NCBI GenBank assembly: GCA_965602635.1
Contig: CBFCZU010000001.1
Span: forward strand, 3,522 to 67,521
Direction of reading: 5' to 3'
DNA length: 64,000 nt
From: an uncultured Planctomycetales bacterium
Lineage (GTDB): Bacteria > Planctomycetota > Phycisphaerae > SM23-33
Positions 38,195 to 62,586 of this stretch are shown here, one piece after another; position 1 is the stretch's first letter; each line of letters opens with the position of its first letter. Both the position numbers and the translations under genes were made by a program. The notes beneath the pieces were generated by a model. That model was given only the letters and a program-made list of their open reading frames with translations, was not told the DNA's origin and searched no databases.

Positions 38195-38268
<74 letters not shown>

Positions 38269-38305: not shown

Positions 38306-38315
38306 GGGCCGGCAG

Positions 38316-39612
38316 CTGTCCTTCCCGAAAACCTCATCCGCACAGGAAGCAACGGCCTTGCGGGCTTGACTGTGGGGCCGGCGGGGATGATCGGCGCGTG
38401 ATCGGAGTGGTCGGCGATGCCGGGGGCGCTTGAGCATGGCCAAATCTGGGCATGGCGCATGGTTCTCTCGTGTGCCAGACGGGACAGGATTGATGCGGGT
38501 CCGCTACGCCGCTCTCGTGTAGCGGTGGTGCAGACCACCGAGATACGCCTTGGCTACGACCTTGCCCTGCGCCGGCGGGCAGACAGGCCGAGTAAACGGC
38601 GAGTTGCGTTCCAGCGACAGGTGCAACCGCGCCTCGTGATAATAGGTGAAGAATTCGGACAGCGTGCGGCGTAGATGATCCTCGTTCAGCACGATCAGGT
38701 GGTCCAGGCATTCACGGCGGATGGATCCGATCAGACGTTCCACGTAGGGATTCTGCCAAGGAGCCCGTGGCGCAATGAGCACTTCCTCGATCCCCATGTG
38801 CTCCACCCGGTCACGGAAGTCCTGGCCGTAGATGCCGTCGCGGTCGCGAAGCAGAAAACGAGGAACTTGGTCGTAAGGAAATGCCTCTACGATCTGCTGA
38901 GCAGCCCACTGGGCGGTGGGGTTGGCCGTCACGTTGAAGTGGACCGCTTGGCGGCGATCATGCCGCAGGATGAGGAAGACGTACAGCACGCGGAACGTCA
39001 CCGTCGGAACCGTGAAGAAGTCGACGGCCGCGATCTGGCGGGCGTGATTCTTCAGGAAGGTTCGCCAGTTCTGGGAAGGCGCCTTGGGCTGTCGGATCAT
39101 GTACTTGGCGACCGTGGATTCGGCCACCGCGTGGCCCAGCAGAAGCAACTCGGATAGAATCCGCGGGGTGCCCCACATCGGGTTCTCGCGAGACATGCTG
39201 ACCTTCTCCACGAATGGTGGGCGCGGAGCTTGTGGTTATCCGGTCATGCTTTCGAACTCGGCGGGGCTGACGTAGCCCAGCGTCTCGGGCTGGACAAGGG
39301 CCAGCGCTGACCGCCAACCTGACCAGAGCCTCGACAGCCAGACCCAGAAGATCCGGTCCCGCGTGCGGAGTTTGGGGCGCTTGACGGAGCGCTGGAGCAC
39401 AGCGATCTAGCGCCGCAGGGCCAGGTTCTCGGCCATTAGTGCGGCACGACCGGCAAAGAAGCCTCGAACGAACAACCACACTGCCTGAAGAACGGCCATC
39501 CCTGAACCTCCGTTGCCGAGATAAACAGCCGGATCCTACGGCCGATGAGGCTCTGCGGCAACGGTGCAAGCCCTTCACCTGCAAGGTGGACGGAGTTTTC
39601 GGGAGGGACAGG
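38316..39612 (-). mobile_element. defective IS481-family insertion sequence (~1.3 kb) with ~20-bp imperfect terminal inverted repeats
   Basis: Right end ctgtccttcccgaaaacctc (38316-38335) matches the reverse complement of the left end (…ggagttttcgggagggacagg ending at 39612), about 17/20. It contains the transposase pseudogene below. It lies 10 bp past the tRNA-Arg terminator. Confidence 0.6.
38504..39436 (-). pseudogene. IS481-family DDE (rve) transposase, disrupted by two in-frame stop codons
   Basis: One reading frame from ATG 39436 to stop 38504: MAENLALRR-TAG-IAVLQRSVKRPKLRTRDRIFWVWLSRLWSGWRSALALVQPETLGYVSPAEFESMTG-TAA-PQAPRPPFVEKVSMSRENPMWGTPRILSELLLLGHAVAESTV… rve core …LGGLHHRYTRAA*. 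The segment between …LVQPE and SRENPMWG looks internally deleted or rearranged. Confidence 0.65.
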
Positions 39613-40182: not shown

Positions 40183-41259
40183 ATGGCAACGAGGAGCCTT
40201 GAACTTCGGTTTTGGGGTGGCGCTGCGTTCGTGCTCGCCGTGCTGGCGGGCACTTCCCAGCTCGGCGCGATCAACTACACGGTCACGAAAGTCGCCGACA
40301 GCGGTCAGAGCGTCGTACTAGCGGAAAACCCGTACGGAGAGATTGCCTTCAGTACGAACGGAGTGATGCTGTACTCAGACGGGGAAGTGCATGACGTGGG
40401 GCCCACCCCGCAGTACTACGCCGGTCCGGACATCAACTCCTCCGGCATGGTCGTGTTCTGGGGCTGGCCGGGCGACACTTCCCGGGGCGGGGTCTGGCTG
40501 TATGACCCCGCGGCAGGGACGACGAACATCAGCGACGATCCCACGGCGCGCTATCCCAAGATCAACGATTCGGGGACGATCGTCTGGCAAGAACAGGGCG
40601 GCATCTGGAAGTATCACAACGGTCAGATCGGCTCCGTCGCACCGGACGGAACGGATCCGGAAATCGGCAACGGCGGTCATATCGCGTGGGTAACCGCGGC
40701 GCATAGGTTACAGATCACCGACGGCGTCTCCACAGAGACCTTGCCGCAAACGGTGGTGCACCACTGGAAGGTGAGCATCAACTCATCGGGACAGGCTGCC
40801 TACGCCGCGCAGGAAGGCGGCGGCTACTCCACGTACCTATATGATGGCACCGAGGCCATCCGGGTAGGGAACGGTGGCCAAAGCTGCCCCCAGCCCAAGA
40901 TCAACGACGGGGGAGACGTTCTCTACGCCCTGGAAGATGGGAACGACGATGTCCTTGTCCTGCGCCGCGAATCGGGTGAAGAGGTCGAACTGCACCGATC
41001 AAGCTGGTCAGGGATCAACGGCTTCGACCTGAACAATCTCGGCAACTCCGTCTACTACGCCGACTACTCCAACCTGACCGTCGTGATAGGCCAGGAGCGG
41101 ACCTACCTGCCCGGCTCGGCCTCCTATGTGAACATCAACGACCACAACTTTGTCGCCTGGGCACGAGACGGCGTCTACCTGGCGGTCCCCGAACCCGCCA
41201 CGCTGTCGCTGCTGGCGATTGGGGGGCTGGCACTGATCAGGCGTCGAAGAAGGAAGTAG
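40183..41259 (+). CDS. PEP-CTERM sorting-domain protein (secreted, unknown function)
   Basis: 358 aa; signal peptide; C-terminus …VPEPATLSLLAIGGLALIRRRRRK*. Confidence 0.8.
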   Translation: MATRSLELRFWGGAAFVLAVLAGTSQLGAINYTVTKVADSGQSVVLAENPYGEIAFSTNGVMLYSDGEVHDVGPTPQYYAGPDINSSGMVVFWGWPGDTSRGGVWLYDPAAGTTNISDDPTARYPKINDSGTIVWQEQGGIWKYHNGQIGSVAPDGTDPEIGNGGHIAWVTAAHRLQITDGVSTETLPQTVVHHWKVSINSSGQAAYAAQEGGGYSTYLYDGTEAIRVGNGGQSCPQPKINDGGDVLYALEDGNDDVLVLRRESGEEVELHRSSWSGINGFDLNNLGNSVYYADYSNLTVVIGQERTYLPGSASYVNINDHNFVAWARDGVYLAVPEPATLSLLAIGGLALIRRRRRK

Positions 41260-41502
41260 CAGCGAGAGGGTGTCGCAATGCCGAGGAGCCTTGAGGGACA
41301 AGTATCACACACATGCTCCGACCTCCGCTCGGGGAAGCGGCGGAGTGGCCGGCTGAGCCTTCCCCGCCAGTGGTTCGGCGGGCGCCGGCCAAAGTCGAGG
41401 GGCAGGGCGAGTCTCGCTCGTTCGTCCCTTCCTGCCTGGCCCGCACGGGCGAGGTTCCGAGTCACGCATCCTATAGCTGGAATCTTCTGAAAGGTCACCG
41501 CA

Positions 41503-43368: not shown

Positions 43369-43515
43369 GGGAATGGAGGAGGCCGTGGCGTACCGGACGG
43401 CCGCTCAAGTGCTCACGGGTTGTTGTTTGCTGATGAGCGGGCCGCTCAGCCCTTTCGTCAGCTGGAGTGAGAGAGTGTGTGCGTCGTGCGGATGCAATAG
43501 GAGAGGAGCGGGACG

Positions 43516-46500: not shown

Positions 46501-46749
46501 GCCGCTACCGGCATGGTCGGGCTCGGTGACTTCCCCGGCGGGACTGTCCAGAGCAGCGCGTATGCTGCGTCGGGAGATGGGTCGAGAGTCGTCGGCTTCG
46601 GTGCCGCCGCCTCGGGCGTGAGGGCCGCCATCTGGGACGCCGGCCACGGCATGCGCGACTCGGGGACCTGCTTGTCAACGACTACGGCCTGGACCTCACC
46701 GGCTGGACGCTCAAGGAAGCTCACGACATCACCCCCGACGGTACAGTAA
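43516..46749 (+). CDS. fused tandem PEP-CTERM modules in one ORF: FGE-sulfatase (SUMF1-like) module, beta-propeller-repeat module, HAF-repeat module (C-terminus frameshifted)
   Basis: 1077 aa without a stop. Module 1 (43516-44553): signal peptide; FGE-sulfatase motifs (…VNFVSWGDAARFANWL…, …GNVWEWNE…, …RGGSFLNS…, …GFRVSDV…); then PEPATLSLLALGGLALIRRRRR. Module 2 (44554-45717) starts directly with GLLPVLVVAAIAVAALGLATPCQAGG, holds ~7 repeats of …DxQGxPHxAW…W.G..W…, and ends …IPEPATLLLLGLGAAVLLGRRRRR. Module 3 (45718-46749) starts directly with AAWVPVLAACAALSWLSPLTASGA and holds HAF-family repeats (…EAFRWTEETGM…GVSADGSVVVG…). The frame is lost near 46655. Confidence 0.6.
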   Translation: MKRQVAAMCAAGLVLALGSAATATVNIETVAVGNAGNAPDTRYETPGYGAVSYEYNIGKYEVTAGQYTEFLNAVAATDTYGLYSGRMALPVAPDKGCNIQRGGNPGSYTYSLAVDWADRPVNFVSWGDAARFANWLHNGQPTGAQDLTTTEDGAYYLNGATGGGLLLAVSREADWTWAIPTEDEWYKAAYYDPETASYYDHPTSSHTRPGYVNDSGNLSGTGNPFVEGGTDPGGYATWDGDGGTDGIGIPYYRTVVGEWENSDSPYGTFDQGGNVWEWNEAFPYGRGLRGGSFLNSGDFLRASYRGSRDPTDEDMNFGFRVSDVPEPATLSLLALGGLALIRRRRRGLLPVLVVAAIAVAALGLATPCQAGGDWVIRPIASDLVGDAAVAVDSQGNPHVAWSCFTGTGWGGDKEEWQYKYARWDGSSWQTTQFTALATHRSRDTSLVVDGQDRPHMAFYVYDRNTAMSRLVYVTPGSGGAWLTEDVFSGPSGSGADPDLALDSQGRPHISHVGRYSRFDGTQWQTEDAWPIGFRNSLALDAQDTPHVASPDGMYGYPSYGTKHQGQWTQTFIVTPTDAWGMSIDLDAQDKPHVAWWDSSKAVPAYSWDTGSGWDTEWIPDQHHSSFGSKGVSLELDDQGRAHIAYRRFYSSTSKDAAYAVWDGASWHLDTIAEDRYVVGKNSLALGLAGDAHVLIGEVTGSISGEFYHAYIPEPATLLLLGLGAAVLLGRRRRRAAWVPVLAACAALSWLSPLTASGATPRFQPLGHLASGHDESHAHGVSDDGSTVVGSSRESESEAFRWTEETGMLPLSGGRSAALAASADGSVVVGFRWGLSSTGQAFRWTEESGTVFLPDLPSPLPRSWAYDVSADGSVVVGKSNTDYDDSSLQNSEAWRWTAEAGTVGLGDLPGWRFDSIARGVSADGSVVVGQGVTGVPSKGSLAFRWTQETGMVPLGDLPGSRSTVDDNSYAFGVSADGLVVVGHGSTDQDKEAFRWTAATGMVGLGDFPGGTVQSSAYAASGDGSRVVGFGAAASGVRAAIWDAGHGMRDSGTCLSTTTAWTSPAGRSRKLTTSPPTVQ

Positions 46750-46751
46750 TC

Positions 46752-47375
46752 GTGGGCTGGGGCATCAATCCTGCTGGCGATCACGAGGCTTGGCGTGCCG
46801 TCATTCCCGAACCCGCCACGCTGTCGCTTCTGGCCCTCGCCGGTCTGGACGGCGTTTTTGCGCCGTCGGTGGGGAACTATGGCCGAGGGTTTCTTGCGGC
46901 TTACGGCAGCTGCGACGTCGAGGTGACCTACAACGTCGGCGACGAGACAATCGAGGGCGCCTGGGCGGTGCTCATGGGCTCCTTGTACCAGGACGACTCC
47001 GATGCGGGGCTGGCCGAGGGCCATTTCAAGGACGTTACGATCCTTCTCAACGATGCGCAGGGGCAGGCCCTACTAGAGGGATCCGTCCCTTCGCTCTACC
47101 TCCGCGAGCTGACCGACGCCGAGGGTGTGCTGGTCGGCACCGGGCTCCTGGAGATCACCGACGGCGACCTGGCCAGACGGTTTCCCTATGTCGAAGGCAA
47201 CTTCCTGGACGTCCACATCGAGCTTGACCCGCCGGAGATCGACGGCTTCGGGCAGAGCTTCGGTGGGGTATGCGAGTTGACGATCCGCCCGATCCCCGAG
47301 CCCGCCACGCTGGCGTTGCTGGCGGTTGGCGGTCTGGCTCTGATTCGGCGTCGCAAGAGACACGCCTTTGTGTGA
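46752..47375 (+). CDS. frameshifted continuation of module 3 plus a fourth domain; carries one degenerate internal and one terminal PEP-CTERM
   Basis: GTG-started ORF …GWGINPAGDHEAWRAVIPEPATLSLLALAGLDGVFAPSVG… (a PEP motif whose TM/Arg tail has been replaced) … ending …IRPIPEPATLALLAVGGLALIRRRKRHAFV*. Upstream in this frame the sequence reads DLLVNDYGLDLTGWTLKEAHDITPDGTVIV, the expected end of the HAF module. Confidence 0.55.
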   Translation: MGWGINPAGDHEAWRAVIPEPATLSLLALAGLDGVFAPSVGNYGRGFLAAYGSCDVEVTYNVGDETIEGAWAVLMGSLYQDDSDAGLAEGHFKDVTILLNDAQGQALLEGSVPSLYLRELTDAEGVLVGTGLLEITDGDLARRFPYVEGNFLDVHIELDPPEIDGFGQSFGGVCELTIRPIPEPATLALLAVGGLALIRRRKRHAFV

Positions 47376-47535
47376 GGGAATGGAGGAGGCCGTCGGGTAC
47401 CGCACGGCCGCTCAAGTGCTCAGCGGTGTTGTTGTGCGCTGAGGGAACGGGGCGCTCGCCTGTTCCGTTGGCCTTGACAAGAAGATGCGCGCCGCGTGCA
47501 ACATGCGGCCTGTCAGGCAGAAAGGGAGCGGAGCG

Positions 47536-48690
47536 ATGAAGGCAGACCGGATAGGTCGTTTGGCGATGTTGGTGGTGTGCGCAGCCGCCGGATCGGCGTT
47601 CGCGTCTGGATTCCCCCACACCACGGACACGCTCTCCGAGGCGCGGTACTACTTGTCCGCCACCACGGTGGGCAGCAAGGCCATTTTCGCTGGCGGGGCC
47701 GCCTCGACCGGCTACAGCGACGTTGTCGACATTTACGACGCCGACGCGGGCCTGTGGTCCACGGACACACTCTCCCAGGGGCGGTATTACCTGTCCGCCA
47801 CGTCGGTGGGGAACAAGGCGATCTTCGCGGGCGGATTCACCGGCCCGCCAGGCGCGATCCCCAGCAACGTGGTGGACATCTACGACGCCAGCACGGGCCT
47901 GTGGACCACGGACACGCTGTCAAAGGCGCGAGGCATAATGGCCGCGACGACGGTCGGCAGCAAGGCCATCTTCGCAGGGGGATACGTAGACGGCGTCGAG
48001 GGCTACAGCGATGTCGTGGACATCTACGATGCCGATACCGGCCTGTGGTCCACGGATACGCTCTCGCAGGCACGCTGTTATCTCGCCGCGACGACAGCAG
48101 GCGGCAAAGCCATCTTCGCGGGGGGCAGCGGTGACAGTGATGTGGTCGACATCTACGACCCCGATACAGGCTTGTGGTCGACGGACGCACTGTCGCAAGG
48201 GCGGCACTGGCTGGCGGCAACTGCGGTAGGCGACAAGGCGATTTTCGCCGGCGGGGCCATTGGTGACAGCGCCTACAGTGACGTCGTGGACATCTACGAT
48301 GCCGTCACAGGGCTGTGGTCCACGGACACGCTCTCGCAAGCGCGAGGTTATCTTGCTGCGACATCACTGGACGGCAAGGCGATGTTTGCAGGAGGCAACG
48401 GCCCCAGCGATGTCGTGGATATTCTCGATCCGGGCACGGGGCAGTGGACCACGGACGCGATCTCGCAGGGGCGATACTATCTATCCGCGACGACCGTGGG
48501 CGACATGGCGTTCTTTGCCGGTGGCGCTACTGGACCTGGACCTGACCCCAGCGGCTACAGCAACGTCGTGGACATCTACACTATTCCAGAACCGGCCACG
48601 CTCGCCCTGCTGGCCTTGGGCGGTCTATCGCTGATCCGGCGAAGGAAGAGCGGAGGAGGGTTGTTCCGCTCTATCGCTCAGCGAAGTTGA
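47536..48690 (+). CDS. Kelch-repeat PEP-CTERM protein
   Basis: Start MKADRIGRLAMLVVCAAAGSAFA. Eight ~40-aa Kelch-like repeats (…ARYYLSATTVGSKAIFAGG…SDVVDIYDADAGLWSTDTLSQ…). C-terminus …IPEPATLALLALGGLSLIRRRKSGGGLFRSIAQRS*. Confidence 0.8.
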   Translation: MKADRIGRLAMLVVCAAAGSAFASGFPHTTDTLSEARYYLSATTVGSKAIFAGGAASTGYSDVVDIYDADAGLWSTDTLSQGRYYLSATSVGNKAIFAGGFTGPPGAIPSNVVDIYDASTGLWTTDTLSKARGIMAATTVGSKAIFAGGYVDGVEGYSDVVDIYDADTGLWSTDTLSQARCYLAATTAGGKAIFAGGSGDSDVVDIYDPDTGLWSTDALSQGRHWLAATAVGDKAIFAGGAIGDSAYSDVVDIYDAVTGLWSTDTLSQARGYLAATSLDGKAMFAGGNGPSDVVDILDPGTGQWTTDAISQGRYYLSATTVGDMAFFAGGATGPGPDPSGYSNVVDIYTIPEPATLALLALGGLSLIRRRKSGGGLFRSIAQRS

Positions 48691-51823: not shown

Positions 51824-51860
51824 GTACCTGCAAGGTGGACGGGGTCTCCGGGAGGGACAA
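51824..51860 (+). repeat. diverged partial copy of the IS481-like left-end repeat
   Basis: acctgcaaggtggacggggtctccgggagggacaactacc matches the terminal ~37 bp of the 182-bp IS end (39576-39612 / 62550-62586). Confidence 0.45.
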
Positions 51861-54827
51861 CTACCTGGTGGACTTTCCGGTGACCGATATGTCCAGTACG
51901 AGCGGAGTGTACGGCTTCATCTTGACCCAGGCGCGGACGGGTTTGATGGTGGCGGTGCGCTTGAGGCTGTAGGGGTTGACGGTCTTGAAGTCCCGCTGGA
52001 GCGCGACCAGCAGGCTGGTCTTGATGGCCACGTCGCCGAAGCTGAGCGTGGAGGTCTCCTTGTCGCTCTTCAGGTCGGCGCTGCGCCTGACGGCGGGGAA
52101 GAAGCTAAAGATCACCGGCTCGTCGCCTTTTACGTCCAGTACACGGACCGTCACTCGCGCGGCCGTGGGCGAGATCACCTGGACCTCCAGGCGGGCCGTG
52201 AAGGTGTCGAACTCCAGCACGACCTCGTGGCCCTCGTCGGTCCGCTCCACGCGCCCCGCGGTGGGCATGTAGAAGGTTCGGCCTTTCACCTTGCGGTGGA
52301 ACGAGCCCGCCTCGGCCTGCTGTTGCGAGTTGGAGGCAGCGAGAATCGTGCCCGCGCCGCGGTGATACAGCTCGACGGCGTTCTGCGGGTCCACCCAGTA
52401 CATCCGCTCGACGATGGGGTCGATCGACAGGGCGTTGAGCCCGTAGACGAATCCGTCGCGCCGCGCGATCAGGCCCTGGCCGTCGAGGAAGGTGAATTCC
52501 GCGCGGTTGGGCATTGGCTCTTCGTCGCCGGGCTTGAAGTAGACGGCGTTTTCCGCCGTTCGGAACCAGTATTCCGGACTGGACGCGCTGGGGCGGCTGG
52601 CCGAGCGTATGCGCCGGGCGGCGCGAACGCGGGCCAGGTGTCGCCCGCGCGCCGACAGCGACAGCACGAAGTCGCCATGGGTAAACGGGTTTGCCCAGAT
52701 CACCCTGCCGTCGTGCAGCAGCGTCAGGTTCCCGGTCGGCAGGGAAGTGTGACACGAGAACTCCACGCATCGGGCCAGGCTCGGCAGGACGCTCTTGTCG
52801 GCGCTCTGCCAGTAGTACTCGCCCAGCGCGTTCATGGTCAGCCAGGTGTAATGCGTAGCCGGCACGACACGCCGCTCGGGGAAGTGCCCGTCCCGCTCAT
52901 GGGCAGCCATTGCGCGCATCTCCCTCCGGCCCAGCTCTCGCCACTTGGCGTTGTCAAGCACGACGCCGCCCGTATAGACGTTGGCTGCGTGGTAGGCGTA
53001 GTGGTTCGTGCCCGTGCCGGTCTCCGAGCTGAAGCGAGACGTCCGATTGCTCACCGGCGTTATCCAGACGGTGATCGTCGCCTCGACCAGTTCGCCCAGC
53101 CGGCGTCGCCAGTAGGCTGCCTGCTCGGCAGGCACGTCGTTCTTGAGCAGCTCGTATGTCTGGAGATAGCCCTGCAGGTGTCGGTTGGGCGGGTGCTCCA
53201 ACTGCTCGTACCAGATGGCTGGGTCGAGCGCCGCTTCCATGCCCGCCGCAGCCGAGGCCAGCATTCGCTTGTCGCCGCGATGCGGGTTCTCGGGCCAGTC
53301 GGACTTGTAGACCAGGGCGAACGGGTAGCACGCCCCGTAGCTCCATTCACTTGCGCGGAGCCTGCCGGATCGGCCAATCGAGCGATACCGTCCGTCGCCG
53401 GCCTGGATAATGTGGTAGAAGTTGCACGCGTCTGCCAGGCCCGCCCGATAGAGGGAAAGCGTTTTCAACTCGTCGATGCCCTTGCGGAACTTGTCCCACG
53501 CAGTTCGCTTCTGGGCGACGGCGCACCAGTGCTCGGCCGCTATGTCGATCGCGCCGCCATCGCCGCCGCCCGCCTTGGCCGCGGCGTAGAGATGCAGCTC
53601 GCCCTCCTTGGCACCCGACAGCTCGATCGACACCTTGCTCTTGCCGGGCATCAGCTTCTGGACCGCCCGCCCGACGCTACGATTGCCCTGCACGGCCTCG
53701 AGCGTAACCTCCGCGCCCGCCGGATCGGCGATCGCCAGCCAGAGGGCCACCTCGATGGGCCCGGCCTCGTCTGCCGTGAACGGCTTGCCCGTCTCGATGA
53801 CCAGCGGACGGGCGACCTCGGCACGATAGCTGGCGACTTTGTGCCCTTCCGCGTCCGTGATCTCGATGGCGGCCGAGCCATGGCGCTCGATCCGGGCTAT
53901 CGCCAAGCCGTCATCGCCGACGGGCACGGGGGCGCCGTTTACCCTCATGGTGCAGCCGGCCCGCCAGTTGATCAGCTTCAGCTTGCTGGACCCGACCGCC
54001 AGCGAGACAGGAAGCCGCAGCGCCGCGGATGCGGGCGGCGCTTCGTCCACCACGTCCACTCGCCCCAGGCGCGTCGGGCGGTGGGCCCAGCCGCCCCACA
54101 GATCGCGCCACGCGAAGTGCGAACCGTCGGCAGGGCGGTTACGCATGACGTTGGCGTAGAAGCGACCTTCCGGCACGCCGAGCGTCTTCATGGGCAGCGC
54201 CGCAACCATCCACCAGCCCCGCTTATCGACGCCCGCCCGAACGCGGATAGATGTCGGGTCGATTGGCTCGATAACGCCCAGTTGGTCGCGCCGGGCGCAC
54301 GGGCGAAGATACCGCAGGACGGCTGCCCTGCCTCCGGCGTTGACCTGCACGTTGACGTACGGATAAGCCGGCTTCTGCGAGTTGGTCAGCAGGACCTCAA
54401 GCGAGTCCGCTTGCCACACCTCCTGCGAGGCAGACGCCAGCAGTTCGGTGGCCTCGGCCTCCCACGCCCTATGGCCGCCCGTGCCGCGCACGATGGTGTC
54501 CGGCGTGGGGTCCAGGCACCGCGCCGCCAAGTAAAGCACCGACTCGTGCACCACCACGCGAATGTCCGTGGCCCTGTTAGCCGGCTCGGGCCTGCCTCTC
54601 GAGAACAGGCGCCCAAGCGGCTTGGCCTGCTTCCAGACGGGGTCGCCCATTGGCTCGTCGCCGTCCAACGCCGGCGCCTTGTCCACGCGCAGCACATGCC
54701 CCGCAGGGCTGTCGCACCAGACGGGCCCGGCGCCGGAGACGCCCTGGCCCCAAACGGTAGAGATCAACCATAGAACCGTTACCGCCGCCGCCACTGCGGA
54801 TTCATTGCGCATGATCGCCTCCATCAT
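51861..54827 (-). CDS. secreted polysaccharide-lyase-like protein (heparinase II/III-like core with CBM9-like N-domain), paralog 1
   Basis: ~988 aa from MMEAIMRNESAVAAAVTVLWLISTVWGQG (signal peptide). Shares long blocks with the paralog at 57753-60704 (YRAGLADACNFYH / YRAGLADAINYYR; WPENPHRGDKRML / WPENPYKGDKRFL; GTGTNHYAYH / GTGTNVFSHY; DPQNAVELYH / DPQNAIEIHH). The family name is tentative. Confidence 0.55.
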   Translation of the reverse strand: MMEAIMRNESAVAAAVTVLWLISTVWGQGVSGAGPVWCDSPAGHVLRVDKAPALDGDEPMGDPVWKQAKPLGRLFSRGRPEPANRATDIRVVVHESVLYLAARCLDPTPDTIVRGTGGHRAWEAEATELLASASQEVWQADSLEVLLTNSQKPAYPYVNVQVNAGGRAAVLRYLRPCARRDQLGVIEPIDPTSIRVRAGVDKRGWWMVAALPMKTLGVPEGRFYANVMRNRPADGSHFAWRDLWGGWAHRPTRLGRVDVVDEAPPASAALRLPVSLAVGSSKLKLINWRAGCTMRVNGAPVPVGDDGLAIARIERHGSAAIEITDAEGHKVASYRAEVARPLVIETGKPFTADEAGPIEVALWLAIADPAGAEVTLEAVQGNRSVGRAVQKLMPGKSKVSIELSGAKEGELHLYAAAKAGGGDGGAIDIAAEHWCAVAQKRTAWDKFRKGIDELKTLSLYRAGLADACNFYHIIQAGDGRYRSIGRSGRLRASEWSYGACYPFALVYKSDWPENPHRGDKRMLASAAAGMEAALDPAIWYEQLEHPPNRHLQGYLQTYELLKNDVPAEQAAYWRRRLGELVEATITVWITPVSNRTSRFSSETGTGTNHYAYHAANVYTGGVVLDNAKWRELGRREMRAMAAHERDGHFPERRVVPATHYTWLTMNALGEYYWQSADKSVLPSLARCVEFSCHTSLPTGNLTLLHDGRVIWANPFTHGDFVLSLSARGRHLARVRAARRIRSASRPSASSPEYWFRTAENAVYFKPGDEEPMPNRAEFTFLDGQGLIARRDGFVYGLNALSIDPIVERMYWVDPQNAVELYHRGAGTILAASNSQQQAEAGSFHRKVKGRTFYMPTAGRVERTDEGHEVVLEFDTFTARLEVQVISPTAARVTVRVLDVKGDEPVIFSFFPAVRRSADLKSDKETSTLSFGDVAIKTSLLVALQRDFKTVNPYSLKRTATIKPVRAWVKMKPYTPLVLDISVTGKSTR

Positions 54828-55130: not shown

Positions 55131-55390
55131 TTGCCGCTCGCCGCTACAATTCCCGGCCCTATGACTTGGACACCATGGCGATTCTTCCTCGTAGCCGTTA
55201 CGGGATGGATGGACCGCAGGCAGCAAGAGGTGATCGATTACCTCAGGGAAGAGAATCGAATCCTGCGTGAGCACGTTGGCCGCAAGCGGCTTCTGCTGAA
55301 CGATGAGCAGAAGCGACGCCTGGCGGTCAATGGCAGAACCCTCGGGCGCAAGCTGCTCCAGCAGTTCGGGACGCTTTCAGCCCGGGCGGC
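55131..55390 (+). pseudogene. N-terminal remnant of an IS481-superfamily transposase gene
   Basis: …MTWTPWRFFLVAVTGWMDRRQQEVIDYLREENRILREHVGRKRLLLNDEQKRRLAVNGRTLGRKLLQQFGTLS… with no catalytic domain downstream; a second, internally deleted copy lies at 61883-61990. Confidence 0.5.
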
Positions 55391-55491
55391 GTACTCAGGT
55401 CCCATCGCCGCGAGGCCGCTCGAGCCGGATTCCCGCTGCCGTAGCGCCACTGAAACTTGGCGCTGTGTGCCCGCTGACGTATATAGACGGT

Positions 55492-56784
55492 ATGCACTCC
55501 TCTGCGGGCAGCCGAGTTGGGATCGCCAAGGCCTTGCTGAGTTTGGCCCTGCTGCCAGCGGCGGCGGACAGACGTGCTGGGGCCAAGGACTGGCCTCAGT
55601 GGCGGGGGCCCCGGCGCGATGGGGTCTCCGCCGAGAGTGGCTTGCTCAAACGCTGGCCCACGTCCGGTCCGAAGCTGTTGTGGGTTACTGAAGGCCTTGG
55701 TTCCGGCTGGGGCTGCCCGGTCATCGCCGGCAAGAGGATCTACGTCACCGGCAAACTAGGCAGGGAAGGCCTGCTCTTTGCTCTCGACTTGGACGGTCGC
55801 GTGCTGTGGAAGAAACCCTACGGCCTTGAGTGGAGCCGGAACTACCCCGGCGCCCGCCATCCGCCAACATTCGACGACGGCAGCGTGTATGTGATGAGCG
55901 GCCGGGCCGGACTGACCGCCTTCGACGCCCGCAGTGGGCAGCAGCGGTGGTCGGTCGATCTGCTCGAGCGATGCGGCGGCCGGCTGCTGGGGTTCGGGTT
56001 TACCGAATCAGTGCTGATCGACGGCGATCGACTCATCTGCTCCCCCGGGGCCCCCGATGCGTCGGTCGTCGCCCTCGACAAGCGCAACGGCAAGACCGTC
56101 TGGACGAGCAAGGGCCTCAGCGATGCGTACGGCTACTGCGCGCCGCTGCTGGTCGATCATGGCAAGACCCGTTTGGTTGTGACCATGACGGGCACAGCGA
56201 TCGTCGGCATCGAGGCCGCCACGGGCAGGCTGCTCTGGCGTCATCCCTACCGCAACAGGAACGGCGGCCATCACATCACGCCCATCTATCACGAGGGACG
56301 CGTGTTCGCCACGTGTGGCTACGGCAAAGGCGGCGTGATGCTGAAGCTGTCACCGGATGGTCGACGGGTGACCGTTGTGTGGACCAATCCTCGCCTGGAT
56401 CCTCACTATGGCGGCGTCGTGCTGCTGGACGGGCACCTGTACGGATCCACGCACAAACGCAAGACGTGGGTATGCCTCGAGTGGGCCACCGGCAAGCTCT
56501 GCTACGAGGAGAAAGGCGTTGGGAAGGGCTCCGTGGCCGCGGCCGACGGAATGCTGTACTGCTACGGCGAGAATGGAGTGGTCGCCCTTGTCAGGCCAGA
56601 CCCGAAGCGCTTCGAGGTGATCAGCTCCTTTCGGATCAGGTGGGGCACAGGCCAGCACTGGGCACATCCGGTGATCTGCGGCGGCCGGCTTTATATACGG
56701 CATGGCGACAGTCTGATGACCTTCGACGTCAGGGGCGGTGCGGGTCTTGCTGGAGACTCCAACGGCCCAGCCGCCCGCGACTGA
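55492..56784 (+). CDS. PQQ-repeat beta-propeller protein (BamB-like/PQQ enzyme repeat), secreted
   Basis: 430 aa from MHSSAGSRVGIAKALLSLALLPAAA; repeated …DWPQWRGPRRDGVS…, …GRVLWKK…, …GRLLWRHPY…, …GKLCYEE… propeller blades. Confidence 0.7.
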   Translation: MHSSAGSRVGIAKALLSLALLPAAADRRAGAKDWPQWRGPRRDGVSAESGLLKRWPTSGPKLLWVTEGLGSGWGCPVIAGKRIYVTGKLGREGLLFALDLDGRVLWKKPYGLEWSRNYPGARHPPTFDDGSVYVMSGRAGLTAFDARSGQQRWSVDLLERCGGRLLGFGFTESVLIDGDRLICSPGAPDASVVALDKRNGKTVWTSKGLSDAYGYCAPLLVDHGKTRLVVTMTGTAIVGIEAATGRLLWRHPYRNRNGGHHITPIYHEGRVFATCGYGKGGVMLKLSPDGRRVTVVWTNPRLDPHYGGVVLLDGHLYGSTHKRKTWVCLEWATGKLCYEEKGVGKGSVAAADGMLYCYGENGVVALVRPDPKRFEVISSFRIRWGTGQHWAHPVICGGRLYIRHGDSLMTFDVRGGAGLAGDSNGPAARD

Positions 56785-56966
56785 AGCAGATACCAGCGGG
56801 CGGCCAGAATCGCCTTCTGGGCCGTCCCAGACGAAACATGTAGGGGCTGAGCAAGAACGCCTGGGCCGTGGCGAACCCCCTCATGCCGAAGGTGCAGGCC
56901 GACAGGCAGGGCACTGACGGCAGGGGAGGCCAGAAGAGTGCTGGGGCCTGATTCCACCCGCCGGGG

Positions 56967-57164
56967 TCATACCCCGGAGGTCGCGATTCCCCCCCAAATT
57001 GTACATCAAACTGTACATCATTTTCTGGTAAACATGGTAAACATGGTAAACATGTGATACATGGAACGTCGATCGGAATTCGTAACGTGTTGTGGTTTCG
57101 TTAGTCCCGATCTGACAACTCTTTACGGGGAGGCCTTCGGGGTCTCATAACCCGGAGGTCGCGG
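56967..57164. repeat. two direct copies of a 19-bp tRNA-Met-like core (tcata[c/a]cccggaggtcgcg) flanking an AT-rich patch with tandem repeats
   Basis: Core copies at 56967-56985 and 57146-57164. Between them: tgtacatca x2 (57000-57008, 57012-57020) and ggtaaacat x3 in perfect tandem (57027-57053). Local GC is far below the window average. Confidence 0.6.
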
Positions 57165-57166
57165 AG

Positions 57167-57406
57167 GTGAGCAAGGGCGCCAAGGCCTGGACGGCCGAGT
57201 TTGCCATCCCATTCAAAGAGCTGGTCGAGGACCCCAAGAAGCTCAATCGTGCCTGGGCGGTCAACTTCGGCCGGATGGCGTACCTGCTTGCGCAAACCGA
57301 GGACACCGCCTGGAGCCCCGTGGGCCAGACAGACTCTCACCTTCCCGCCAAGTTCGGCTGCCTGTGGCTTGACGTCGGGAGGATGGAAAGGACGGTAGCC
57401 AAGTGA
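57167..57406 (+). pseudogene. C-terminal fragment of a CBM9-like domain
   Basis: 79-aa ORF …WTAEFAIPFKELV…WAVNFGRM…AWSPV…HLPAKFGCLWLDV… resembles the C-terminal strands of CBM9/DOMON-like modules. It begins exactly at the second att-like core with no N-terminal part. Confidence 0.4.
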
Positions 57407-57752
57407 ACGGTCGATATGTCGCATGGATCGCGATCCCCTGTATCTGTGGAATTGGGGGTCCCGTTCCTGTGCCTGGGGATGGGGCCGCCACCGATCAGCC
57501 GTATAACACGGGCGACGAGCAATGGGTCTTCAACGATAACTGGCGCAACCGCAATTCAAGGAGTGGATCGGGCAAGTCGTCGGGAAGGAAGGAGAGGATG
57601 CCTGTCGTCACGACAAGTGGTGTTGCATGATGTATCCGAGGCTGATGCTGCTCCGTGACCTACTAAGGCATAGCAGCACCTTGGAGGCCTACCTGCGCGT
57701 GATCAAGCTTCTCCGGAGATTTCTATACCGATCGGGACAGTAGCGCAGACCG

Positions 57753-60704
57753 TTAGTCCAAGACACTAACGCGAATCTCGAATGCTTCCGATTTTTTCAA
57801 CGTCACATAGGCGCGGACCGGCTTGTAGTTGTTCTCGAATCTCAGTTTATAGGGGTTGAACAACTTGTTGTCTTTCTGGATCTCTACGGGCCGGCTGCAC
57901 TCCAGGAGGACACTGTTGAATCTCAGCGTACTGTTGCCCTTCCGCACCTGGATATCGCTCGACCTGCGCACGCCGGGGAAGAAGCTGTAGACGACAGGCT
58001 CGTCTCCCTCGGCCGAGATGAGCTCGACGATTACCTTCGCGGCCTTGGGGCCTGTCACTTTGCAGCTGAGCTTGACCGAAAACGACTTGTAGGTCAGAAG
58101 CACGTCGTGCCCGTTGGCTGCCGATTGGATCTTGCCATCGGCGGGCAGGAACTCTGTCTGATCCTTCAACTTCCTCATGAAGGATCCGCCGGTGGGATGC
58201 TGCTGGGAGTTGTTCCCCCACAGAATCGGTCCAGCCTTCGCGTGGTGGATCTCTATGGCGTTCTGCGGGTCCAGCACGTACTTGTCGATAATGGGTTCCA
58301 GAGACACAGCCGACATGCCATATATGAATCCTTGCTGCCTTGCAATGAGGGCTTTGTTCTTGAGGAAATAGAACTCTTTCTCTTGCGGCCAGTCCCGTTC
58401 GTCGCCCGGCATGAAGTAGTTGGCAATGTCTGCGGCGCCACTCCAGAAGCCAGGCCCGGCCTGGCTTGGCCGACGATCGGGGTTGATGACATGAAGCAGT
58501 CTGACGCGCGCGAGTCTTCGGCCCTGCGGCGTCAGCGACAGGACGAAATCGCCCTCGCCGATCATTGGAAGCATGTAATAATTCTGGCGTCCGTCGTGCA
58601 GGCAGATCTTGAAGCCGTCGGGCAGGGAGGTCTGACAGCCGAATCGTACGCAATCGAGAAGTGCCGGTAGGACCTGCTTGTCGCGGCTGCGAAAATAGTA
58701 GTGTCCTACCGCGCTCATTGTTGTCCAGGTGTAAGCTGTAGCGGAAATGCCTTCTCGTTCTGCGAATTGGCCGTTTTCAGCGTGTCTGGCCAGACCTCGC
58801 ATCAGCTTTCGCCCATATCGCCGCCACTCGGGCCTATCAAACACTACACCGGCTGTATAGACGCTGGAAAGGTAGTGAGAGAACACATTCGTGCCGGTCC
58901 CCACGTCCCGCGTGTAGAATGTCTTGTTGTCGAGGGCCGGGGTGATCCAGATTCTAGCCAGTTCCTCCGACAGCTTCAGCAGGCGCCTTCGCCAGTAGGC
59001 TGCCTGCTGAGGTGGGATGTCGTCCTTCAGCAATTCATAAGTCAGCAGATATGGCTGCACGTACCAGGCAGGTGGGCGTTCGAGCATCTTGTGCCAGTTT
59101 GCCGGATCCAGCGCCTCCTCCATTCTCGCCCTGGCCTCGTTCAGGAAACGTTTGTCGCCCTTGTAGGGGTTCTCAGGCCAAGCGGACTTGTACACCACGG
59201 CGAGCGGATAGGCCATCCCGCCTGACGGAATGAACCTGTAGTAGTTGATGGCGTCGGCGAGTCCCGCCCTGTACATGGCTCGCGTGGGGAGCTTTTCGAT
59301 GCCCGGCCGAAAACGGTCGTACGCAACCTTACCTACGCCCAGAACGCAGGCTCGCAAGGCGGAAATCCGAATCGGTTTGGATTGATCCTCGCCGATAAGG
59401 GCCGTCGCCTCGATCTCTACCTCGCCGGTGACGGGGCTGTGAGGCAAGTCCAGCGTGTGTACGCCCGCCCTGAGATGGGCTACGCCCTTGCCCACAATCT
59501 TGCCTTGCCGTCGCGCCGTCAGCGTGGCTCTGGTCGATGTGCCGGCCGTGGTGTTCAGCGCGATGCGAAGTCGTATGGGCTTACTGACGTCATCCTGGAA
59601 AGGCTCAGTCACCGTAAGGATAAGGCCCCTGCGTACCTCGGCTGCGTACTGTACAGCTTGCGAACCATCCGGCGCCTGTATCTTCAGCCGTGCGGTACCA
59701 TGGCGCCCTATCGGGACAATGGCCTTGCCGCCGGGATCGACGACAATTGCCTTACCGTCGACGAAAAAGGTGTAACCGTCTCGCCAATGCTCCAGCAGAA
59801 TATTGTTGACGCCAATGGCCAGGCTGGACGATGGCTTTATCCGCGGGCGCGGCCGGGCCGGGCGATTGACTACAGTCAACGGGTTGAAGCGGTGCGGCAT
59901 GTTCGTGGGATATCTGAGGCGGTCAAGGCCCTTCCAGAGGTCTACCCAGGCATACTCGGACCGGTCGGCCGGCCGATTGCGGACAACATTGCCATAGAGC
60001 GTCTTATCCGGCAGATTGTGCTTCGCCAGCGGAAGAACAAGCCCAAGCCGCCAATTGTCCTTGCCGACCGCGGTTCGTACCGTGATCGAGGAGGTGTCAA
60101 CAGGCACAACGGCCGCTGGATAGTCGCCAGCAGAGCCTGGCTGTGGGTACGCCTGCCACTCAATATGGCGCCCCGATATGGTCCGATCGGCAACCAGGGC
60201 ACCGGCGGCGTTTATCAGCAGGTGAAGATAGGGATATGATCGGTCCGATTCCTCGGCAAGGAGCAACTCGATCGAGTCGTCCTGCCAGATATCCGTATCG
60301 TCCGCCCCCGGGGTAAGTGTTGTGATATCGGGCTCGAGGCATTCGGCAATGATATAGAGCGACCCCTTGTATCGCAGAAATCGCAAGGTTGTCCGTCGCT
60401 TGGGAGGCTCGGGCACGCCTTGCCTATAGAAGGGCGTCATCAGTTCCGCCGATTCCCAGACGCCCGATGCAAAAGCCTCGCCCAGATCGAGAGAGGGCGG
60501 GGTGTCAACTTGAAGAATCCTGTAGGCGGGCTCCATTGGCCAGATTGGCGCATGTTCGATCGCCTGGGACTCCTGGACGCCAAGGGCCGGCGCCCTGTCC
60601 TGGGTTGTGCCTGGCGAGTGCGGAGAACATGATACTAGAGGCAGCAACAGGCATAATGCCAGGAGGCTAATACCGCATAGAAACCTGGAGGACCGTGTGT
60701 TCAT
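57753..60704 (-). CDS. secreted polysaccharide-lyase-like lipoprotein (heparinase II/III-like core with CBM9-like N-domain), paralog 2
   Basis: 983 aa; lipoprotein signal MNTRSSRFLCGISLLALCLLLPLVSCSP; AGGAG RBS; homologous throughout to 51861-54827. Confidence 0.6.
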   Translation of the reverse strand: MNTRSSRFLCGISLLALCLLLPLVSCSPHSPGTTQDRAPALGVQESQAIEHAPIWPMEPAYRILQVDTPPSLDLGEAFASGVWESAELMTPFYRQGVPEPPKRRTTLRFLRYKGSLYIIAECLEPDITTLTPGADDTDIWQDDSIELLLAEESDRSYPYLHLLINAAGALVADRTISGRHIEWQAYPQPGSAGDYPAAVVPVDTSSITVRTAVGKDNWRLGLVLPLAKHNLPDKTLYGNVVRNRPADRSEYAWVDLWKGLDRLRYPTNMPHRFNPLTVVNRPARPRPRIKPSSSLAIGVNNILLEHWRDGYTFFVDGKAIVVDPGGKAIVPIGRHGTARLKIQAPDGSQAVQYAAEVRRGLILTVTEPFQDDVSKPIRLRIALNTTAGTSTRATLTARRQGKIVGKGVAHLRAGVHTLDLPHSPVTGEVEIEATALIGEDQSKPIRISALRACVLGVGKVAYDRFRPGIEKLPTRAMYRAGLADAINYYRFIPSGGMAYPLAVVYKSAWPENPYKGDKRFLNEARARMEEALDPANWHKMLERPPAWYVQPYLLTYELLKDDIPPQQAAYWRRRLLKLSEELARIWITPALDNKTFYTRDVGTGTNVFSHYLSSVYTAGVVFDRPEWRRYGRKLMRGLARHAENGQFAEREGISATAYTWTTMSAVGHYYFRSRDKQVLPALLDCVRFGCQTSLPDGFKICLHDGRQNYYMLPMIGEGDFVLSLTPQGRRLARVRLLHVINPDRRPSQAGPGFWSGAADIANYFMPGDERDWPQEKEFYFLKNKALIARQQGFIYGMSAVSLEPIIDKYVLDPQNAIEIHHAKAGPILWGNNSQQHPTGGSFMRKLKDQTEFLPADGKIQSAANGHDVLLTYKSFSVKLSCKVTGPKAAKVIVELISAEGDEPVVYSFFPGVRRSSDIQVRKGNSTLRFNSVLLECSRPVEIQKDNKLFNPYKLRFENNYKPVRAYVTLKKSEAFEIRVSVLD

Positions 60705-60843
60705 TCTTTTTCTCCTAGCCCACCTTATTCACGAAGTAACGAGCCTAGCGGGCGCAAGTGGTATGAACTGACAAGGTTACGACAAGAATCCGGCGGCTTA
60801 CGCCATACTTCGTTACGGCCGCGGAGCGGCGTTGACAGTCTGT

Positions 60844-61611
60844 TCAGGAAGATCGGACCGCCAGCATGCACCAGGTGTGAACAAAGGTGCTCTCGCTGCC
60901 GTGGAAACTCAGTTCAATGCCGGCGGTTCGCCCGGTCTCGCAATAGGCCCTCATGACCCCCAATACCAGGTCTGCTCGCCCCGGACTGTTGGTGATCGCA
61001 ATCCAATCCTTGAAGTCACGCCGGGTCCTCCATACGCGATCGGAGACAACTTGCAGGTCAAGTTGCCGGACGATGCCGTGCAGTTCCGATATCGGCATGG
61101 CGCGGACATGGGATGGATCGCGCAGGGTCTCCAGGGCGTTGTGCAGGCCGGCTTCCACCTTGTTCTCGCTCGTCACGATGTCAGCCAGGACAACCATGCC
61201 CCGGCGTCTGGTCACGCGGCGGAGTTCCGCGACGGCCCGAATCGGGTCCTCCAGGTGATGCAGGGCCAGTCGGCAGAAGGAGGCATCGAAATGCCCATCG
61301 GGATACGGGATGCTATCGATGTCCCCACACGCGAACTCCACGTTGCAGGCATGCGCGTCGCGGCATCTTTGTCGAGCCAGATCCAGCATCCGCTCGGTCA
61401 GGTCCAGAGCGACAAGTCGCCCGACTATCGGCGCGACCGCCACAGACAGAAGGCCCGGGCCACAACAGGCATCCAGGACAACGTCGTCAGCCTGTACGCC
61501 GCTGGCCGACAGGATGTGGTTGATGGATTCCTTCTGTCGGAGAGACAGCGACGCGGCGAAAGCCTCCGCCTGTGCAGCGAACTCTCTCTGAACGCGCTGC
61601 CTATGGTCCAT
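60844..61611 (-). CDS. class I SAM-dependent methyltransferase (Methyltransf_11/UbiE-like)
   Basis: 256 aa from MDHRQRVQREF… (ORF-track start is 61824); SAM motif I …VVLDACCGPGLLS…, post-I …ALDLTERML…, motif II …HFDASFCRLALHHL…. Confidence 0.7.
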   Translation of the reverse strand: MDHRQRVQREFAAQAEAFAASLSLRQKESINHILSASGVQADDVVLDACCGPGLLSVAVAPIVGRLVALDLTERMLDLARQRCRDAHACNVEFACGDIDSIPYPDGHFDASFCRLALHHLEDPIRAVAELRRVTRRRGMVVLADIVTSENKVEAGLHNALETLRDPSHVRAMPISELHGIVRQLDLQVVSDRVWRTRRDFKDWIAITNSPGRADLVLGVMRAYCETGRTAGIELSFHGSESTFVHTWCMLAVRSS

Positions 61612-61882
61612 CCGAAAGGGCCTCCTCGGGTATCGGGCAGCCAGGCGGCTGGCCAGAGGAGGTTCGCTGCATCTGGCCACCAGCCGGACGCTGAGCATAG
61701 CCATCTTCTCAAGCCCCGGCAAGTGAACTGACGCATGGAACGGACCAACGCAATCAGAGCCGGCCGCGCCTATGTGGAGCTGTTCACCAAGGACGGCCGA
61801 CTGGTGAAGGGCTTGCCCCTCCAAATTCCGTCCGCAGGATCGCTCCTACGGCTTCTGGCACGGCTCGTAGCCCGTCGCTACA

Positions 61883-61990
61883 ATGCCCCGTCCCATGAGA
61901 CCTTGGACATTCTTTCTGGCAGCCATCGCGGGATGGATGAACCGCAGGCAGCAGGAGGTCATCGAGTATCTCAGGGAGGAGAGCGGCCGG
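61883..61990 (+). pseudogene. second, internally deleted remnant of the same transposase N-terminus
   Basis: MPRPMRPWTFFLAAIAGWMNRRQQEVIEYLREE then a ~150-bp deletion relative to 55131-55390; DNA similarity is obvious on alignment. Confidence 0.45.
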
Positions 61991-62386
61991 GCGGACTGCT
62001 CAGGAGCCACTGCCGCGAGGCGGCCTGAGGCTCGGACGCAACCTGGAACCCCTGCTGTCTTGCAGTGCAGCAGCCCAGCAAGAGCTCCTGCCGAACGAAC
62101 GCTTCTCACTGCCCACTCTCTTGGGGCTGCAGCGATGGCAATGCATCTGTCGTAGGCAAGAGACGCCGTTCGATTGAGGCCGTCAGCGAAGCTGCATGCG
62201 CTGCCGTTTCTCGGACCTGCTCTGCCCCGTTCAGACGACTACCGGGACTACCGGATTAAGGTCGAAATACCGCGTCTACTCGCAACTGTATGCGTCTGTT
62301 TGCTACCCTTTGCGAAAGTGCCCCAACCTGGTAAGATATTGTAGGCAAAGCACTCATGGGCTTTTCGGCGGAGTGCTTACGTCGCC

Positions 62387-62586
62387 TCATAACCCGGAGG
62401 TCGCGGCCATTAGTGCGGCACGACCGGCAAAGAAGCCTCGAACGAACAACCACACTGCCTGAAGAACGGCCATCCCTGAACCTCCGTTGCCGAGATAAAC
62501 AGCCGGATCCTACGGCCGATGAGGCTCTGCGGCAACGGTGCAAGCCCTTCACCTGCAAGGTGGACGGAGTTTTCGGGAGGGACAGG
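62387..62586 (+). repeat. third tRNA-Met-like att-like core (62387-62406) abutting a solo copy (62405-62586) of the 182-bp left end of the IS at 39431-39612
   Basis: 62405-62586 appears identical to 39431-39612, including the transposase ATG on the minus strand, which is truncated after a few codons here. Confidence 0.65.

Follow-up and report, generated by a model that had tools for sequence, protein, structure and literature searches.

tRNA-Met-derived segments at the probable right ends of rve-transposase elements in Planctomycetota

Three tRNA-Met-like repeats in the window

The contig CBFCZU010000001.1 of an uncultured Planctomycetales bacterium (GenBank assembly GCA_965602635.1) carries, within the 64,000-nt stretch analysed here (positions 3,522 to 67,521, hereafter the window), three copies of a short tRNA-Met-like repeat that recurs downstream of a family of rve-domain transposase genes. 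By exact-pattern search, the repeat TCATA[A/C]CCCGGAGGTCGCG was found on the + strand only, at 56967-56985, 57145-57163 and 62387-62405, and no further copy was present in the window on either strand at up to 3 mismatches. All three copies fall inside 5.4 kb of the 64 kb, while the chance expectation for matches in the window was ~0.05 from shuffled sequences and three matches were reached in 0 of 100 shuffles. An earlier note on this DNA had listed the same three 19-mer copies, and all were recovered on the + strand, the second one base away from its reported position. The canonical 21-mer CTCATAACCCGGAGGTCGCGG is common to copies 2 and 3, and copy 1 is a variant that also includes the anticodon-stem 5′ strand. 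The copies and the stretch between the first two are:

56961..56985, + strand: copy 1, variant tRNA-Met-like segment CCGGGGTCATACCCCGGAGGTCGCG, tRNA positions ~27-51; putative first member of a tandem right end
56986..57143, + strand: AT-rich putative right-end module, 158 bp, 44% GC, directly after copy 1 and before copy 2
57144..57164, + strand: copy 2, canonical 21-mer CTCATAACCCGGAGGTCGCGG; right terminus
62386..62406, + strand: copy 3, canonical 21-mer CTCATAACCCGGAGGTCGCGG; right terminus of unit 3

The likeness to tRNA-Met proposed in the earlier note was borne out by viral contigs, in which the exact 19-mer gave 31 matches; around 25 of them ARAGORN called a tRNA-Met gene, its CAT anticodon in register. 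These genes included A as well as C variants, and the copy-1 variant TCATACCCCGG was among real tRNA-Met genes too. The segment covers tRNA positions 32/33 to 51/52, that is, the anticodon loop, the anticodon-stem 3′ strand, the variable loop and the T-stem 5′ strand, and the canonical 21-mer matches positions 32-52 of real tRNA-Met genes base for base. We take the CCC at positions 39-41 to be the initiator-type (tRNA-fMet) signature. Moreover, three further matches are att-like (attachment-site-like) 3′ tRNA-Met fragments in the phage contigs L013, L028 and L032, and they start at the same base as the repeat, indicating that its left edge is the usual edge of anticodon-loop-type att identity blocks.

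As had been claimed, none of the three sites holds a complete tRNA: ARAGORN and Rfam called none at 56.9-57.2 or 62.3-62.5 kb, no complete cloverleaf was present, and the only tRNA parts at the three sites were positions 32-52 (27-51 in copy 1), the tRNA 5′ part being absent from the window copies. The sole tRNA of the window by these programs was tRNA-Arg(ACG) at 38195-38268, and Rfam at permissive thresholds gave no match in the window region and five loci. The junction sequence was 99.9-100% identical in two ENA assemblies and one Logan assembly, and the window junctions are therefore real, not assembly artefacts. Contigs of those assemblies stop at window positions 62400 (inside copy 3) and 56978 (inside copy 1), as is expected at repeated or variable sequence.

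Scans for copies outside tRNA genes used a pattern that excluded the ordinary continuation GCGGG, with which tRNA-fMet genes run on as ...GCGGGTTCRAATCC. One genome per species from 185,579 species (596 Gb, in which we estimated ~6 chance 19-mer matches) gave 16 matches, and JGI metagenomes gave 36. Several of these were decayed tRNA-Met 3′ fragments, and L069/L086 was set aside as a chance match inside a coding gene; the remaining matches formed a coherent group from Planctomycetaceae metagenome-assembled genomes and related metagenome contigs. With three copies per 64 kb and 16 non-tRNA matches in 185,579 genomes, a dispersed repeat of the repetitive extragenic palindrome or bacterial interspersed mosaic element type (REP/BIME) was rejected, and the 19-mer did not behave as the common generic repeat that the earlier note had allowed for.

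The metagenome contig L062 was also rejected as a family member: its genome is low in GC, and the locus proved to be a gene duplicated in inverted orientation next to a tyrosine recombinase. At L062 10189-10400, two small paralogous genes in divergent orientation enclose the exact 20-mer and, 190 nt away, a 16-nt inverted copy, with direct repeats between the two copies and a tyrosine-recombinase fragment nearby, and this is probably an unrelated tRNA-Met att region.

The probable right end of an rve-transposase element family

In the pattern scan, the 21-mer lay downstream of, and co-oriented with, an rve-domain transposase gene at L038 (= L078, L085), L048, L064, L065 and L077. The N-terminus of this transposase family reads ...WMNRQQQEVIEYLREEN..., and more than 4,600 relatives were found. 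The linkage held in the reverse direction: when homologues were picked by protein similarity alone, 8 of 11 had the 21-mer 0.4-4.7 kb downstream on the same strand (L087-90, L094, L095, L096, L099, L100, L102 and L103), the L100 contig stopping at CTCATAA and so including the first seven bases only. The other three were interrupted by another gene or by the contig end. Looking up both ends of the multi-contig transposase P0033 returned the same locus on all three contigs, each stopping 320-460 nt past the gene, and viral contigs queried with the transposase yielded one distant relative only. Altogether, at least 12 independent planctomycete-type loci have the 21-mer as the invariant last sequence of a conserved non-coding module, and the 21-mer is invariant across transposases just 67-88% identical. 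These loci show directly both the anatomy of the element and its linkage to the transposase.

The transposase is an rve-fold DDE protein with Pfam rve_3 and HTH_32 domains. Its NCBIfam scores were 84-106 bits for IS3 (cut-off 160) and 68-100 bits for IS481 (cut-off 224), by which it is related to both of these insertion sequence (IS) families and a curated member of neither. The compact elements L095, L096 and L099 encode nothing but this rve protein.

From left to right, a complete element would consist of the rve/DDE transposase (~360 aa), optional cargo, a conserved block, a repeat module, an 85-150 nt spacer and the tRNA-derived 21-mer. A conserved CGCTAYNAT box lies 12-16 nt before the transposase ATG and may be a -10 element. 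Between the transposase and the end stand zero to several cargo genes: a conserved open reading frame (ORF) of 138-174 aa in L038 and L102, a LexA-like helix-turn-helix (HTH) protein with a 2H phosphoesterase in L065 and L100, Mrr and PD-(D/E)XK nucleases in L087, and other genes in L094 and L103, the latter including a flavodoxin gene. The conserved block GGAYGAAACNTGKAACCCCW comes after the transposase or cargo gene. In the form CMTGKAACCCCW, preceded by GGAYGAAAC, it occurs at L103 8210 and 9005, L087 7149, L102 8136 and window 62042, and it may represent the right repeat of an IS, the boundary of a cassette or an element resembling a terminator. The two block copies in L103 flank the flavodoxin cargo gene.

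The module holds 2-3 copies of one 8-10-mer and then 2-6 copies of a second motif with a 9-11-bp period, often with CATG. These two kinds of direct repeat look like protein-binding arm sites. The unconserved spacer of 85-150 nt separates them from the 21-mer, and this two-repeat and spacer layout was found before the 21-mer in L038, L048, L064, L065, L077, L087, L094, L095, L096, L100, L102 and L103. The module repeat sequences vary among elements while the 21-mer is constant: in an alignment of 16 ends it was ~100% conserved, T-stem positions 50/51 alone varying (GCGG, GTGG, GCAG), and the flanks (40 bases before, 20 after) were 30-60% conserved. Predicted sigma70-like sites aimed at the 21-mer were found at 6 of 18 ends against ~1.3 expected; in L102, TTGACA-17-TATAGT and TTGCAA-17-TATAGT stand one before each 21-mer copy.

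Defence-type gene clusters were observed in or beside the elements, left of the transposase gene, at L087-L090, L095, L102 and L103. They comprise a Qat-like KAP NTPase with QatB and QueC, DndB with an SNF2 helicase, NACHT-Mrr, HerA and WYL.

The right boundary was located by comparing pairs of loci. L038 and L048 share 96% identity as far as the last G of the 21-mer (tRNA position 52, G52), beyond which they are unrelated. L087/L090 and L088/L089 are identical up to the same G, after which the former pair runs into a phage portal gene and the latter into the middle of a zinc-finger ORF. The full-length element L099 and window unit 3 share 97% identity over the last 200 nt, the alignment ending ...GCGG. 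These comparisons show that the point at which the element ends or recombines immediately follows the final G of the 21-mer. In every Met-type copy the tRNA match ends at position 51/52 and gives way to unrelated DNA, the T-loop and acceptor end being absent. The right flanks are often truncated genes, among them other transposases (L038, window copy 3), a Prim-Pol gene (L095) and a 79-aa ORF (copy 2). Tandem 21-mer ends were found twice, 178 nt apart in window copies 1 and 2 and 181 nt apart in L102, where each 21-mer is preceded by its own promoter-like module. Two unrelated loci have a second end starting exactly after a first 21-mer, which speaks for the G52 edge as a place where joining is preferred.

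Further observations concern the bases beyond this edge. Across 16 ends and at L102 9157, the bases that follow the 21-mer are non-random: AGGT opens five independent flanks, CCAT/CCAA/CCC six and GG three. The right flank of L077 is CCATCTTCGTCC, 12 nt that also occur just upstream of the L038 transposase start codon. In the metagenome Ga0114922, the elements of L065 and L078 versus L085 are 72% identical and joined via the 21-mer to one right flank (100% identity); this shared flank could reflect a branch in the assembly graph, a site that was used more than once, or recombination at the 21-mer.

Window remnants, relatives and the surrounding island

Fragments of the transposase family were found at two places in the window, 55161-55391 and 61901-61984, each upstream of a repeat copy. 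The corresponding remnants and their neighbours are:

55161..55391, + strand: unit 1 transposase fragment, N-terminal, aa 7-83, 73% identity (tblastn)
55492-56784: PQQ beta-propeller gene, after the unit 1 transposase fragment
56826..56850, + strand: variant conserved block AGACGAAACATGTAGGGGCTGAG, 140 nt upstream of copy 1; L038 and L048 have the same variant
57167-57406: unrelated 79-aa ORF fragment, right of copy 2
61820..62406, + strand: unit 3, an internally deleted element with a putative left limit
62401..62586, - strand: truncated IS481-like IS, 186 bp, with the transposase 5′ end and the terminal inverted repeat ...GGGAGGGACA; 99% identical to 39427-39612
38311..39611, - strand: decayed full IS481-like IS with inverted repeats TGTCC[T/C]TCCCGAAAAC and an rve_3 transposase carrying an in-frame stop
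38195-38268: intact tRNA-Arg(ACG), with a direct repeat at L002 282-395 (~70.3 kb in window terms)

In unit 3, the left region is followed by transposase codons ~11-38 (61901-61984) fused to the final 13 codons, GGLLRSHCREAA*; the block (62029-62054) and the module come next, and copy 3 closes the unit. L077 contains a similar remnant. Unit 1 comprises the transposase fragment at 55161-55391, the PQQ propeller gene, the variant block at 56826 and copy 1. Units 1 and 3 are decayed copies of the element family, nested in a larger island that follows tRNA-Arg. The 158-bp stretch between copies 1 and 2, 44% GC against 66.5% for the window, has the repeats of a right-end module: two copies of TGTACATCA (57000-57008, 57012-57020), three of GGTAAACAT (57027-57053) and GTGATACATGG, then a spacer of ~80 nt. 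An AT-rich insert had indeed been described here, as bracketed by attachment sites; copy 1, the module and copy 2 appear instead to form a tandem right end, a layout that recurs in L102. The suggestion that the 79-aa ORF is a truncated CBM9 protein found no support, as it had no Pfam hit, two short homologues only and no similarity to the neighbouring large proteins.

Copy 3 is joined to a solo IS end, as the earlier note had it: the 186-bp IS481-like end has its decayed full copy at 38311-39611. The joint sits in a shared CGG, where the IS, reading AGGTTCTCGG, resembles the 21-mer end, AGGTCGCGG, and it is probably a pseudo-site or microhomology.

Relatives of the element carry other tRNAs. 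The same module occurs in L101 (transposase 51% identical), with six GCAATG repeats, a ~100 nt spacer and, by eye, a promoter-like site; there it ends in the tRNA-Asn(GTT) 3′ half, complete to CCA, followed by what looks by eye like a terminator hairpin. L002, ~6.3 kb past the window end, holds a module of the same layout, with two copies of GTGCGTCA, 3-4 copies of GCCACTTGT, ~75 nt and then a tRNA-Arg fragment, which matches the intact tRNA-Arg from C32 through the tRNA end and 72 nt downstream at 97% identity. Unlike the Met-type copies, the Asn and Arg segments run to the tRNA 3′ end. These sequence comparisons suggest that a module linked to a tRNA is shared generally within this lineage.

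Only one tRNA-Arg 5′ half is present, and GC content is 68.8% to the left of tRNA-Arg versus 63.2% to the right. The repeat pair and the GC shift indicate that the three tRNA-Met-like repeats lie inside a classic tRNA-flanked island of ~32 kb. An intact target tRNA at an element end was found for this separate tRNA-Arg pair only. The earlier note had proposed looking for an integrase near the repeats; a crude tblastn with two query fragments, covering 38-64 kb and the 6.7 kb past the window end (L002), turned up no tyrosine integrase.

Other observations concern the IS481-like IS and the genes of the island. The decayed IS copy, with ends TGTCC[T/C]TCCCGAAAAC...GGGAGGGACA, lies 42 nt past tRNA-Arg; solo ends of this IS are present in the window at 51826-51859 and 62401-62586, and derivatives of ~100 bp resembling miniature inverted-repeat transposable elements (MITE-like) lie just beyond it (L002 ~212-308 and ~790-880). 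Ends of the same IS type stand 8 nt from the L093 left region and 78 nt from the L084 21-mer. Paralogous genes of ~980 aa, at 51861-54812 and 57753-60704, both on the - strand, stand on either side of unit 1; they have lipoprotein-like signal peptides and a weak alginate-lyase match only, and a solo IS end borders the first. Further left, 41183-48644 contains a run of genes ending in PEP-CTERM-like sorting signals, present as seven copies of a 64-nt repeat, and a gene at 47.6-48.5 kb has six or seven tandem coding repeats of 129-147 nt.

Interpretation and comparison with known systems

On balance, we hold it probable that the repeats are right ends of mobile elements bearing a tRNA-derived segment of attachment type, probably served by the rve protein. 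From the loci described above we infer the recombination chemistry and the natural target as follows. The tRNA piece would be the element-borne half of an attachment-type site, with an identity segment copied from the target tRNA gene from the first anticodon-loop base onwards, as in classical tRNA-integrating islands. In the Met clade the segment is cut at G52, with copies placed at non-tRNA sites and often beside truncated genes. The rve protein would be the likely recombinase, since it is the sole gene always present. Because the left edge falls at position 32 in three different tRNAs and no conserved terminal base precedes it, the tRNA part looks like an element-borne att identity segment, not a terminus cut by a transposase. 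A more specific version, which we put forward only tentatively and regard as doubtful, is that an rve/DDE lineage evolved into tRNA-gene-specific integrases, whose attP-like site would combine the arm repeats with an fMet, Asn or Arg segment from position 32, the Met clade having become promiscuous and joining at G52. Just as speculatively, that version would imply convergence on the logic of tyrosine-integrase islands by way of transposase chemistry.

Several results weigh against this interpretation. No inverted or direct copy of the 21-mer was found upstream of the transposase gene above shuffled controls in 12 elements. A left end made of the decayed tRNA-Met 3′ part (T-arm, acceptor, CCA) was tried and rejected, as its summed score of 300 was within the shuffle range of 276-322, although L100 taken singly reached p = 0.013-0.04. 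No consistent target-site duplication was found, possible ones being present in at most 2 of ~10 elements and recognised post hoc (GGGCC, 5 bp, in L087; GGCT, 4 bp, in L099). The reverse complement of the L102 block matches the L065 left region at 17/17, with a motif of the TGGGG...CCCCA type, and L065 has its own inverted pair at 12/14; inverted repeats within elements were not significant in most members. By this sequence match, the block resembles what an ordinary IS core would have as its right inverted repeat, and the 21-mer would then lie at least ~340 nt outside that core, so that the module could belong to a different host element or hitch-hike. No sigma70-like promoter was found in the window copies, and only a third of the ends have promoter-like sites. 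No tRNA-Met gene was found in the window, nor any tRNA in the fetched family loci. No family member was seen beside an intact tRNA-Met gene, an arrangement that the scans excluding GCGGG were unable to show, and canonical tRNA targeting by the Met clade is therefore only putative. Finally, DDE transposases are not known to require an identity segment.

An ordinary IS with a captured flank is the reading that we rank second and consider unlikely. In such a case, a TGGGG...CCCCA IS located upstream of a tRNA-Met gene would have mobilised ~340 nt by using a surrogate outer end within the tRNA, much as ISEcp1 transposition units do, and the 21-mer would be a fossil of that capture, kept as a new cleavage site and devoid of att function. 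The IR-like (inverted-repeat-like) block after the transposase or cargo genes fits this scheme, as does the resemblance, by eye, of the 21-mer first half CATAACCC to the block core TGTAACCCC; cargo may also sit between the block and the 21-mer (L087, L103), and truncated genes at the right flanks are what one-ended events or adjacent deletions would leave. However, a captured flank leaves unexplained why the tRNA-Asn and tRNA-Arg segments of the relatives start at the same position 32 and why no conserved terminal bases stand just before the tRNA part. The cut would moreover lie 14 nt beyond AACC in the 21-mer versus 5 nt in the block, and the inverted repeats, as noted, mostly lack significance within members.

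The reading of the earlier note was that the copies are att-site scars. It holds in so far as they mark mobile-element boundaries and start at the usual att edge; it fails in that they are not 3′ tRNA segments left at a tRNA-Met gene, all stopping at 51/52. If tyrosine-integrase elements had inserted in a tRNA-Met gene here, the copies would be leftover attL/attR identity blocks, and their left edge does coincide with the starts of tRNA-Met att fragments in the phage contigs L013, L028, L032, L051 and L067; there are arm-like direct repeats beside the core, and a genuine attL/attR-like tRNA-Arg pair surrounds the region. Against this stand the absence of the T-loop/acceptor part and of the tRNA 5′ part from every copy, the negative outcome of the crude two-fragment tblastn for a tyrosine integrase in 38-64 kb and L002, and the recurrence of this truncated 21-mer as the end of elements at more than 10 unrelated non-tRNA sites, in every case with the rve gene upstream. 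Classical att scars are thus improbable and already largely refuted at this locus.

It is very improbable that the function lies at the RNA level, with the module transcribed outward and the tRNA-like 21 nt, perhaps together with its flanks, acting for example as a processing signal, decoy or guide. The excess of sense-strand sigma70-like sites would suit such a role, but there is no Rfam match, the window copies lack a promoter, and the 21-mer has no conserved pairing partner because the anticodon-stem 5′ strand is not conserved. A generic GC-rich repeat, chance match or assembly artefact is already refuted: chance accounts for some scan matches, clearly so for L069/L086, but not for the clustering of three copies in 5.4 kb, the scarcity of non-tRNA matches among species genomes, the agreement of three assemblies or the strong linkage to one transposase family.

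In a limited search of the literature, no description was found of DDE elements with tRNA-derived ends. If the favoured interpretation is true, a DDE family with conserved tRNA segments (fMet, Asn and Arg by clade) would represent a second, independent route to tRNA-associated mobility, and a source of small carriers of defence genes in Planctomycetota (Mrr, PD-(D/E)XK nucleases, 2H phosphoesterase). The 21-mer together with the repeat module provides a precise marker to delimit elements and decayed remnants that are now annotated just as 'transposase fragments', and it also accounts for breaks in the assemblies of these genomes.

Tyrosine-integrase islands classically land in tRNA genes. The Islander catalogue lists genomic islands and prophages integrated in tRNA genes by such integrases (PMC4383910). 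Like them, the present elements carry a tRNA segment from the anticodon loop with arm-like direct repeats beside it, have a recombinase gene near one end, include relatives that use other tRNAs (Asn, Arg) and frequently bear defence cargo. Unlike them, the sole conserved enzyme is an rve/DDE protein and not a tyrosine integrase, the Met segment reaches no further than position 52, its copies neither restore nor adjoin a tRNA-Met gene, and the flanks are arbitrary, often truncated genes. With IS3 and IS481 the elements share a lone rve DDE transposase that has an HTH at its N-terminus, candidate inverted repeats of the TG...CA type (TGGGG...CCCCA), passenger genes, internally deleted MITE-like derivatives (unit 3, L077) and nested insertions in other IS; they differ in transposase scores under both family cut-offs, in a structured non-coding module of at least 340 nt past the putative right repeat, and in an outer end that derives from a tRNA and lacks an inverted counterpart on the left.

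The nearest published parallel that we found is the ISAba32 subgroup of the IS1202 family, which inserts 5 bp from XerCD recombination sites, copies without target duplications being attributed to later recombination (bioRxiv 10.1101/2022.12.17.520857). Both are rve-type IS lineages that stand consistently beside a recombination-type site. In ISAba32, that site (xrs) is part of the target: it stays behind when the IS moves and is always 5 bp from the left repeat. Here the tRNA-like site is on the right, at a variable distance of 0.35-4.7 kb, and moves with the element. ISEcp1-type units mobilise DNA downstream of the IS right repeat up to a surrogate outer end, and the present elements likewise have downstream DNA mobilised with the IS to a second, outer boundary. 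However, the surrogate ends of ISEcp1 are variable and weakly similar, while the outer boundary here is one invariant 21-mer.

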